Shown here: piece after piece, positions 22,290 to 25,200 of the stretch
Layout: each line of letters opens with the position of its first letter
How positions within the stretch are numbered: the first letter of the stretch is position 1
From: a candidate division SR1 bacterium
GTDB taxonomy: Bacteria; Patescibacteriota; Gracilibacteria; Absconditabacterales; Absconditicoccaceae
Length of the DNA: 27,325 nucleotides
Direction of reading: 5' to 3'
Assembly (NCBI GenBank): GCA_007116275.1
Contig: SKIU01000069.1
Location: 1-27,325 of the forward strand
Made by a program: the position numbers and the translations under genes
The notes under the pieces: generated by a model
Told to the model about the DNA's origin: nothing
Seen by the model: only the letters and a program-made list of their open reading frames with translations
Databases searched by the model: none

Positions 22290-25200
22290 ATGCACAAAGA
22301 AAAATTTCAAGGATTAATGGTTACATTAGCGTCAGTTGAAGAGATTGAAAAATGGTCAAACGGAGCAGTGGAAAATCCAGATACAGTAAATTATAGAACT
22401 GGAAAGCCAAAGCCAAAAGGGCTTTTTTGTGAAGCAATATTCTGACCAGTTAAGAATTATGAATGTGCTTGTGGAAAATATAAATGAATAAGATACAAAG
22501 GTATTGTATGTGAAAGATGTGGTGTAGAAGTGACAACTTCAAGAGTAAGAAGAGAGAGAATGGGACATATTGATCTTGCAGTACCAGTATTACATGCACG
22601 ATATAAGTCAAGTCCATCAGGATGAGTACATCAGTTATTGTGACTATCTTCCAATGAAATAGATAAAATATTGACATTTGTGAAGTATGCAATAGTGGAT
22701 GAAGTAACTGAAGATACAATTAATCAAATAATCGAAAAATTAACAGAACACTTTGATTCTAAAATAAAAGAGCTTGATGAAGTATATCAAGAAGAGTTTG
22801 AAGCTGCAGAAAAAAAGAAACAAAAGGATGCTGCAGTTAAACTGTATAATGAAAATAAATTGGGACTTGAAAAAGAATTTAATAGAGTAAAATCTATTAT
22901 TGCAGATCTTAAATTTTGAGCTACTATACTCGAAAGTGATTATAGAAATATCTTTTCTCAGTTTGCTGATATGGTGCCTTTTGCATCAGGACCTGATGCT
23001 ATTTTAAAGATGCTGAAGAAGATAGATGTAGAAAAAGAGATAGAAAAAAGAGTAAAAGAATTTCCAACAATTAAATCTGAAGAAAAGAGGAAAAAAGCAT
23101 TTCAGTTAATTAAATTATTGATAAACTTACATGTATCAGGTGTAAAACCAGAAAATATGGTTATAAAAAAACTCCCAGTAATACCACCGGATGTAAGACC
23201 AGTAGTACAATTAGAATGAGGTAAATTTGCATCATCAGATGTAAACTTGTTTTACAGACGTGTATTAATGAGAAATATAAGACTCAAGAAAATGATACAA
23301 GTTGGTATGCCTGATGTTGTAAAGAAGAATGAAATTAGACTACTGCAAGAATCAGTAAATAATCTTCTTGTTGGAGAAAAATGAGGTCCTTGAAGAGCAT
23401 GATCAGGAGTGAAAGTATTTAAGTCTCTATCTGATATGTTGTCAGGAAAGGAAGGAATTTTTAGGAAAAATCTTCTTGGAAAAAGAGTTGATTACTCATG
23501 AAGATCAATTATTACCGTATGACCAGACCTTAACCTGAATGAGTGTGGATTACCATTGTATATAGCAGTAAGGATGTTTACACCGTTTATTATAGGAAAA
23601 CTGATTGAAAAAAAGATCGTATATACCCCAAAACAAGCAGAAAAACTTATTAAAGATGGTGCTCCAATTGCGCTTAAATTTCTTGAAGAAGTAGTGAAAG
23701 ATAAGTATGTGTTACTTAATCGTGCGCCAACACTCCATAGATTATCTATAGAGGCATTTAAAATTAAATTAATGCCAGGTAAAACAATAAGAATACACCC
23801 ACTGGTATGTCCTGCTTTTAATGCCGATTTTGATGGTGATCAAATGGCAGTACATTTACCAGTATCTGATGAGGCACAAAGAGAAGCAAGAGAATTGATT
23901 GCTGCAGATAAAAATATTTTGAAACCAGCTTCTGGAGAACCTACTATTACTCACTCACAGGATATGGTTCTGGGTATCTACTTCTTAACAGATGATTATA
24001 GAAAAGATGGAGAAAAATATGTTGGGATATATTGATCAGTTGATGAGGTAGTGCAAGCGTACGAATCGCGTCGTATAGAAGTGAAAGATACGGTTGTTAT
24101 TCCATATGATGGAGAACATATTAAGACGACGGTGTGAAGAGTGTTATTCAATTCTATATTGCCTGAAAAAGTAAGATTTATTAATAAAACTATGAGAAAA
24201 AAAGATCTTAAAAAAGTTTTAAGTATAATTTTTGATTCTTATAGTATGGAAGAGACAGTAAGGGTTGCTGATATGATAAAAAACTATGGATTTACCTATG
24301 CAACACAATCAGCAACATCTATCAATGTATTGGATATGAAAGTTCCGGTCGAGAAAGAAGAAATTATGCAATGGGGAGATAAAAGAGCAAATGAGATATA
24401 TAACTTATTTTTTAAGTGATTCTATACTGAACAAGAGAAACACAGGTTGATTATCAATGTTCGAAGTGAAGTGAAAACAAAGATAGAGTGACATGTAAAA
24501 GAACTTAGTGGTCCAGGAGACGATATGTTTAGTATGATTGATTCGTGAGCAAGGGGATCTGTTACCAATACCGTACAGATTTCTGGTATGAAATGATTGG
24601 TAGTTAATCCAAAAGGAGAAGTAATAGAACTTCCGATTAAAGGGAGTTTTGTAGAATGATTAAGACCAGTTGAGTACTTTATCTCTGCTCACTCGGGAAG
24701 AAAAGGAAAAGCAGATACAGCATTAAGAACTGCTGAATCAGGATATCTTACAAGGAAACTCTGTGATTCGTCACAAGAAGTGATTGTTAGGGAGGATGAT
24801 TGTGGAACAACTGACTCAATTACTCTTTCAAAGGATGAGGCTGAAATAAGAAATGAAGAATTTTCAGAAATGATATATGGAAGAACATTGGCACAAGATG
24901 TTCATGACGAAAAATGAAATACTATTCTCAAAAAAGATGATGTACTCAATAAAGAAAAAGTACAACTCATCGAAAATACAGACATAGATATGATTAAAGT
25001 AAGAACGCCGATAGTGTGTAAAACCGTATGATGAGTATGTAAAAAATGTTATGGAATGGATCTATCGACAAGAGAAGCAGTAGAGGTAGGTGTTCCAGTT
25101 GGGGTAATCGCTGCACAATCTATTGGAGAACCAACAACACAGTTAACGATGAACACCTTCCACTTATGATGAGTTGCAAGTAAAGAATGAGATATGACGC

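Follow-up and report, generated by a model that had tools for sequence, protein, structure and literature searches.

CGA and CGG as probable tryptophan codons, beside TGA as glycine, in a genome of the Absconditabacterales

The locus and its in-frame CGA and CGG codons

The window analysed here is the whole of a 27,325-nucleotide stretch (contig SKIU01000069.1, positions 1 to 27,325 of the forward strand) from a candidate division SR1 bacterium of the family Absconditicoccaceae, assembly GCA_007116275.1, and the subject is the meaning of the codons CGA and CGG in its RNA polymerase genes rpoB and rpoC, in the other open reading frames (ORFs) of the window and in the genome as a whole. The assembly, called G000 below, amounts to 742 kb in 118 contigs, the window being contig C1, with a GC content of 34% and a completeness of 73%. 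NCBI translation table 25 (SR1 and Gracilibacteria) reads TGA as glycine by a tRNA-Gly(UCA), which is the same here, and keeps CGA and CGG as arginine, in which G000 most probably differs, so not all of its sense codons would be standard. A preliminary description of the window had proposed that CGA, and probably CGG, encode tryptophan, and this reading is supported by genome-wide alignment statistics, by Trp-type tRNAs with the anticodons UCG and CCG, and by the lack of an Arg-type reader of CGA and CGG among the tRNAs found. From the sequence evidence we put the probability that the organism uses table 25, with TGA as glycine, together with both CGA and CGG as tryptophan at about 0.93; for CGA alone the assignment is close to certain, and for CGG it is highly probable. 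The reassignment as such is already known.

The genes and codons that carry the argument are the following.

22290-26093, plus strand: rpoC (beta-prime subunit), 1267 amino acids, 35 in-frame TGA codons (Gly), three CGA
18553-22188, plus strand: rpoB, 1211 amino acids, 34 TGA, one CGA (18805, residue 85)
22599-22601, plus strand: CGA, RpoC residue 104, invariant Trp column; family relatives have TGG (eight) or CGA (three)
24462-24464, plus strand: CGA, RpoC residue 725, conserved Trp column; family relatives have TGG (nine), CGG (one) or CGA (one)
25797-25799, plus strand: CGA, RpoC residue 1170, variable column; GAA or GAG in 11 of 11 family relatives, Ile in G020
18805-18807, plus strand: CGA, RpoB residue 85, variable column; GAA in G014
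18143-18145, plus strand: CGA in the S18 part of an S6-S18 fusion ORF; likewise CGA in G014
16607-16612, plus strand: tandem CGA CGA in a small hydrophobic ORF (16433-16867) without a Pfam family; CGA CGA at the aligned codons of G014
15847-15849, plus strand: CGA, ribosomal protein S2 residue 33; CGA in G014, Ile in G020
1618-14148, minus strand: giant ORF, 4176 amino acids, 97 TGA, 16 CGA, two CGG
9472-9474, minus strand: CGA, giant ORF residue 1559; aligned G014 codon TGG
9460-9462, minus strand: CGG, giant ORF residue 1563; no alignment to G014 or G020
5116-5118, minus strand: CGG, giant ORF residue 3011; CGA in G014 and Tyr in G020 at the aligned position

G014 is a genome of the same family, and G020 a genome of the same class that uses the standard code. 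In the taxonomy used the order consists of a single family (80 of 80 sampled genomes), and TGA occurs inside rpoC in all 18 relatives from the family, and in none of 12 relatives from other families of the class. The eight codons on which the preliminary description had relied were all found in frame and at the coordinates given there.

The two CGA codons at 22599 and 24462 had been matched to canonical tryptophans, and a wider comparison bears this out. In a panel of 80 distant standard-code RpoC genes from diverse bacteria, taken from at least 600 matches of a contig search dominated by the universal RpoC motif, residue 104 is tryptophan in 80 of 80 and residue 725 in 78 of 80, and when RpoC was translated with CGA and CGG as X, both residues aligned with tryptophans of solved beta-prime chains. 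The same holds for the claim that conserved arginines are written with AGA, CGT or AGG, since the 36 RpoC columns with arginine in at least 80% of the panel are occupied in G000 by AGA (21), AGG (3), CGT (2), AAA (6) and four other codons, and never by CGA or CGG. At the invariant tryptophan columns (RpoC 22, 104 and 725, and RpoB 1083) TGG, CGA and CGG are interchangeable among eleven relatives of the family. Alignment to G014 was obtained for 22 of the 32 CGA and CGG codons in the window, and these face TGG, CGA or CGG in 13 cases and an arginine codon in none. The CGA at 26125 likely falls upstream of the start of L27.

Codon meaning across the genome

The genome-wide comparison used 667 ORFs from the whole of G000, none overlapping another and none shorter than 100 amino acids, with 1219 CGA, 116 CGG (0.53 per 1000 codons), 1424 TGG, 1556 CGT, 392 CGC, 4374 AGA and 865 AGG codons. 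CGA had been described as rare, which is correct for rpoB and rpoC, with one and three codons, but not for the genome, where it is nearly as numerous as TGG. A cruder set of 277,850 codons contains overlapping shadow ORFs, and therefore only codon shares were taken from it.

CGA and CGG were masked as X, hence unable to steer the alignment, and the ORFs were searched with tblastn against 800 kb of G020, where 177 of the 667 gave matches. Tryptophan is the residue most often found opposite CGA (263 columns: Trp 95, Phe 28, Tyr 20, Leu 18, Gly 3, Arg 1), and the profile is the same as that of TGG (282 columns: Trp 94, Phe 43, Tyr 25). CGG could be followed in 15 columns only, with Trp in four, Tyr in four, Gly in two and Arg in none. 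An alignment mainly to arginine, which the preliminary description had named as the outcome that would speak against it, is thus seen for neither codon, while AGA faces arginine in 683 of 1315 columns and TGA faces glycine in 655 of 1161. Likelihoods of each meaning, calculated with substitution tables from the same G020 alignments and with the tested codon left out, give glycine as the best meaning of TGA by 1152 natural-log units, and tryptophan as the best meaning of CGA, ahead of tyrosine by 213 and of arginine by 545 units. For CGG tryptophan is also best, ahead of tyrosine by 6.9 and of arginine by 30.9 units. This leave-one-out test flagged ATG as leucine, which we reject as an artefact, methionine having a single codon.

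A comparison within the family, against 763 kb of G014 (274 ORFs matched, median identity 42%), gives the same picture at the level of codons. CGA is paired with TGG, CGA or CGG in 237 of 461 aligned codons and with an arginine codon in two; the corresponding counts are 23 and none among 43 for CGG, which faces TAT twice, and 328 and 13 among 614 for TGG. AGA behaves in the opposite way, with 13 pairings to TGG, CGA or CGG and 1127 to arginine codons among 2049. These pairings therefore place CGA, CGG and TGG in one synonymous family, apart from AGA, AGG, CGT and CGC. CGA is used 46.7 times per 10,000 aligned columns and TGG 50.1 times. We considered whether G000 had reached an unusually advanced stage of the reassignment, and rejected this, since the CGA share in G014 is similar (0.40).

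The remaining arginine codon of low frequency, CGC, aligned only weakly with arginine in G020 (82 columns: Arg 17, Lys 14, with lysine nominally 5.5 natural-log units ahead of arginine), and it faces arginine codons in 37 of 142 pairs with G014. A rare codon at poorly conserved sites is the likely explanation.

Transfer RNAs

Aragorn found 34 tRNAs and a tmRNA in G000. Identity positions were read after trimming to positions 1-73, and those that matter here are listed below.

Contig C7: tRNA(CCG), A1:U72, G73, U20
Contig C60: tRNA(UCG), G1:U72, G73, U20
Contig C72: tRNA(GCG), G1:C72, A73, GGATAG D-loop with A20
tRNA(UCU): G1:C72, A73, GGATAG D-loop with A20
Contig C103: tRNA(UCA), Gly-type, G1 C2 G3, U73

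An inspection of the UCG and CCG tRNAs for tryptophan identity elements had been suggested, and both carry them. The Arg-type tRNAs found in G000 have the anticodons GCG and UCU only, of which the first reads CGU and CGC and the second AGA and AGG; by Aragorn and the identity positions an Arg-type reader of CGA or CGG was not seen, and Aragorn found no anticodon ACG in this assembly of 73% completeness. The combination of A1:U72 or G1:U72 with G73 and without A20 is present in 14 of 14 tRNA(CCG) and 11 of 11 tRNA(UCG) of the family, and the same first pair and G73 are present in all 27 members of the tRNA-Trp(CCA) set. The three tRNAs with UCG or CCG in the standard-code outgroup are in contrast Arg-type, with G1:C72, A73 and A20. 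The Trp-type tRNA(UCG) is spread across the order: its exact signature was matched in 56 of 81 genomes, and where a genus lacked it, sequence variants of this tRNA were present in all five genomes that were checked. A pattern search for Arg-type tRNAs with NCG anticodons in the family genomes, which was noisy, read by eye and had reversed-pattern controls that matched about equally, gave tRNA-like matches with GCG only.

The likeness to tRNA-Trp extends beyond the identity positions. With the anticodon left out, the CCG and UCG tRNAs of the family are 61% and 60% identical to the tRNA-Trp of the outgroup, against 50% and 47% to its tRNA-Arg. When the anticodon columns were removed, a maximum-likelihood tree joined the 25 CCG and UCG tRNAs of the family and one outgroup tRNA-Trp in a clade (support 98/92), nested within the outgroup tRNA-Trp(CCA), and a branch with support 99/99 separates from it seven Arg-type tRNAs, including the UCG and CCG tRNAs of the outgroup. 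We infer that tRNA(UCG) and tRNA(CCG) arose by duplication of tRNA-Trp followed by a change of the anticodon.

The encoding of the 3' CCA is a separate observation on these genes: it is present in two of 15 tRNA-Trp(CCA) genes of the family as against 11 of 12 tRNA-Trp genes of the standard-code outgroup.

Tryptophanyl-tRNA synthetase

The gene for tryptophanyl-tRNA synthetase (TrpRS), trpS, is single in most genomes of the family. According to a TrpRS-tRNA structure from 2025, the E. coli enzyme reads C35 and A36 with Thr225, Asp226, Ser227 and Lys274, the hydroxyl of Ser227 contacting N1 and N6 of A36, while C34 is read by the backbones of Tyr270 and Gly271, and G73 by Glu155 (PMC12135181). 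We aligned 18 sequences of the family with 10 of the outgroup, in E. coli numbering. Two divergent second copies (G004b and G009a) and two sequences of a divergent subtype (G021 and G025b) were dropped before the counts and the enrichment test, and one earlier alignment additionally left out G009b and G009c. The contact positions are occupied as follows.

Ser227: family (n=18) Ser 3, Ala 6, Thr 5, Asp 2, Pro 1, Met 1, with Ala in G000; outgroup Ser 9 of 10
Gly271: family Lys 16 of 18, including G000; outgroup Gly 10 of 10
Asp226: family Asp 8 of 18; outgroup Asp 10 of 10
Thr225: family Thr 17 of 18; outgroup Thr 10 of 10
Lys274: family Lys 18 of 18; outgroup Lys 10 of 10
Glu155: family Glu 18 of 18; outgroup Glu 10 of 10

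This pattern fits an enzyme that would still read C35 and G73, and in which the reading of A36 may have been relaxed.

The genes of TrpRS and of the Trp-type tRNA(UCG) are about 2 kb apart in G014 (G014:C2:77536-80784). This linkage was seen in G014 only; in G000 trpS is on contig C36 and tRNA(UCG) on contig C60.

A second lineage in the Bacillota

The order of one metagenome-assembled genome of the Bacillota (locus L220, G100) was sampled with 201 genomes. A Trp-type tRNA(CCG), with A1:U72 or G1:U72, G73 and no A20, is present in four of them (G223, G265, G228 and G124), and these may correspond to the genomes that have been described as of the Anaerococcus type. In their TrpRS positions 225-227 are Thr-Asp-Pro and positions 270-271 are Asp-Val, while Thr-Asp-Ser is kept at 225-227 in seven of seven neighbouring genomes, one of which has an Arg-type tRNA(CCG). 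A tRNA-like CCG sequence ending in U72-G73 was found in five of five genomes with a TrpRS of about 70% identity, in none of the three remaining genomes with a TrpRS of at least 91% identity, and in none of two with a TrpRS of about 50% identity. The co-occurrence of a Pro227 TrpRS with a Trp-type tRNA(CCG) is suggestive, and it is not exclusive. The divergent TrpRS of the four genomes scores 246 bits with TIGR00233, as against 354-372 bits in the neighbouring genomes.

Other features of the window

The ORF that holds the CGA at 18143 had been taken as S18. The codon does lie within the S18 part, but the ORF (17729-18295, plus strand, 188 amino acids) joins ribosomal protein S6 (residues 3-91) to S18 (residues 135-184, by Pfam) without an intervening stop. 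It has one continuous match in G014 over residues 1-186, and the fusion seems to be common to the two genomes. The giant ORF has a hydrophobic N-terminal segment, and its sole Pfam match is a weak one to an FG-GAP-like repeat (E 6e-5, below the cut-off). Two small ORFs on the minus strand, 217-702 and 730-1587, have signal-like N-termini; a weak match to the type IV secretion pilin family PF18895 (E 1.5e-4, below the cut-off) was obtained for the first, and no Pfam family was found for the second.

Discussion

The code read from G000 is very like the one published for Absconditabacteria. Shulgina and Eddy (2021, eLife, PMC8629427), to whom the preliminary description had rightly attributed the reassignment, predicted CGA and CGG as tryptophan codons in that group, with consistent tRNAs, a tRNA(GCG) that replaces ACG, and a low GC content, and later papers restate the reassignment (PMC13092985; bioRxiv 10.64898/2026.05.03.722492). 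TGA as glycine, both CGR codons as tryptophan, and tRNA(UCG) and tRNA(CCG) with G73 and without A20, which is the tRNA rule that they applied, are found here as well, and so are the tRNA-Arg(GCG) instead of ACG and a GC content (0.34) within the published range of 0.26-0.38 (PMC8629427). The finding therefore confirms a known code in another genome. One difference is quantitative: CGA reaches 46.7 per 10,000 aligned columns here, whereas all species of that paper stay below 37 per 10,000 columns aligned with Pfam, the two measures not being identical (PMC8629427).

The other known reassignments of arginine codons resemble this one in part. In Anaerococcus and Onthovivens, likewise of low GC content, CGG alone has become tryptophan, likewise with a Trp-type tRNA(CCG) on a former arginine codon, and CGA stays arginine through a tRNA(ICG) without any tRNA(UCG) (PMC8629427; PMC13092985); G000 is not of this type, since the reassignment there falls chiefly on CGA and the genome has a Trp-type tRNA(UCG). 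In Enterosoma, also a low-GC bacterium, the arginine codon AGG has gone to methionine, and there an arginine tRNA was inferred to have changed its charging identity (PMC8629427). The tree and the identity elements in G000 point instead to a duplicated tRNA-Trp with a changed anticodon. The main text of PMC8629427 does not mention TrpRS and discusses duplication for the AGG case only, not for these tRNAs. We found no paper on adaptation of TrpRS in Absconditabacteria, nor one that states a relaxation of the TrpRS pocket, and the supplements of PMC8629427 may hold more.

How the reassignment might have come about can be outlined with some caution. In a duplicated tRNA-Trp the anticodon CCA would have become CCG, and later UCG, and the ancestral Arg-type tRNA(UCG) and tRNA(CCG) would have been lost. 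The present tRNA(UCG) would read both CGA and CGG, and the tRNA(CCG) would read CGG. Both would be charged by the single TrpRS, whose altered anticodon pocket (Ser227 to Ala, Gly271 to Lys) would let it tolerate G36 and U34, and they would be rejected by the arginyl-tRNA synthetase (ArgRS) because A20 is missing. The reassignment could then be seen as a matched pair, of a tRNA-Trp duplication with anticodon change and of a TrpRS without strict reading of position 36. Ser227 is also missing in an unrelated lineage of the Bacillota that has a Trp-type tRNA(CCG), so that the capture of arginine codons by tryptophan may in general require a relaxed pocket beforehand. We hold this proposal as a whole, the matched pair included, to be possible rather than probable, and offer the duplication origin and the TrpRS pocket as new leads.

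There are several points that weigh against parts of this reading. Relatives have glutamate codons where G000 has CGA at RpoB 85 and RpoC 1170, which are half of the four CGA codons of rpoB and rpoC. Both columns are variable, and the codons are uninformative on the meaning of CGA; probably they are lineage-specific substitutions of glutamate by tryptophan at the surface. The evidence for CGG is thin, with 15 and 43 columns and a lead over tyrosine of just 6.9 natural-log units, and the caution that had been expressed over this codon was fair, yet in none of the 58 columns was it paired with arginine. A tRNA-Trp(CCA) was not found in the assembly of G000, which is 73% complete; a pattern search found it in 15 of 18 relatives of the family. 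The tRNA tree was built from 71 columns, with three long-branch arginine tRNAs misplaced inside its Trp-type group. The family is a single clade, in whose TrpRS 12 of 103 positions conserved in the outgroup have switched, so that the two among the six contact residues are not significant (hypergeometric P=0.14). One standard-code outgroup genome (G026) likewise has alanine at 227, and in the Bacillota order the Pro227 subtype of TrpRS occurs in 25 of 201 genomes (E <= 1e-60), not all of which show the tRNA. The argument from TrpRS is confounded by phylogeny and is kept as a lead, not as a finding. Lastly, according to a paper from 2026, these reassignments of arginine codons still await verification by experiment (PMC13695967).

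The most serious alternative is that decoding is ambiguous, with CGA and CGG mostly tryptophan but in some fraction arginine, or else slow or unassigned, either by ArgRS mischarging tRNAs with C35 and G36 or by an arginine tRNA that is missing from the assembly. C35 and G36 are identity elements for arginine, and both tRNA(UCG) and tRNA(CCG) keep them. The completeness of 73% leaves room for a missing tRNA, and the authors of the published prediction say that ambiguity is not excludable without experiment (PMC8629427). On the other hand, CGA is as frequent as TGG at conserved tryptophan sites (46.7 and 50.1 per 10,000 columns), which would be costly if it were ambiguous, A20 is missing in all 25 tRNAs of the family, and the matches to Arg-type NCG tRNAs in the family, from the noisy search read by eye, have GCG only. 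We regard ambiguous decoding as improbable.

Marginally less probable is that only CGA is firmly tryptophan and that CGG is nearly unassigned or stands for another aromatic residue such as tyrosine. The rarity of CGG and its even split between tryptophan and tyrosine in the G020 columns, with the small likelihood difference between the two, are what one would expect in that case. However, CGG is paired with TGG, CGA or CGG in 23 of 43 positions of G014 and with the tyrosine codon TAT in two, a dedicated tRNA(CCG) with A1:U72 and G73 exists, and wobble reading of CGG by tRNA(UCG) is expected from the wobble rules (PMC8629427).

That table 25 applies unchanged, with CGA and CGG still arginine and the matches to tryptophan columns due to coincidence or alignment artefact, has very little left to stand on. 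It could point to the two CGA codons of rpoB and rpoC on variable columns without tryptophan, but masked CGA is paired with arginine in one of 263 columns of G020 and with arginine codons in two of 461 of G014, neither codon is found at any of the 36 arginine-conserved RpoC columns, and no Arg-type tRNA for them was found in G000. Editing of C to U in the RNA, considered since it would turn CGG into UGG with the genetic code unchanged, can be dismissed, as nothing was found in its favour, CGA would become UGA and thus glycine but aligns with tryptophan (95 columns against 3), and dedicated Trp-type tRNAs with matching anticodons are present.

Reassignments of sense codons are very rare in bacteria, and the one in G000 is clear and far advanced. 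Of the codons of the tryptophan family 48% (1335 of 2759) are CGA or CGG, and these two are present in 69% of the ORFs (459 of 667), and table 25 therefore writes arginine for about half of the tryptophans, so that the warning that this table alone mistranslates the genome was well founded. Such mistranslation harms work on this group, be it by homology search, by structure prediction or by proteomic search. As the reassignment has been published, our reading of the codons is a confirmation and not a discovery. The new leads, namely the duplication of tRNA-Trp, the anticodon pocket of TrpRS and a possible convergent case in the Bacillota, name concrete residues and RNAs for experiment.

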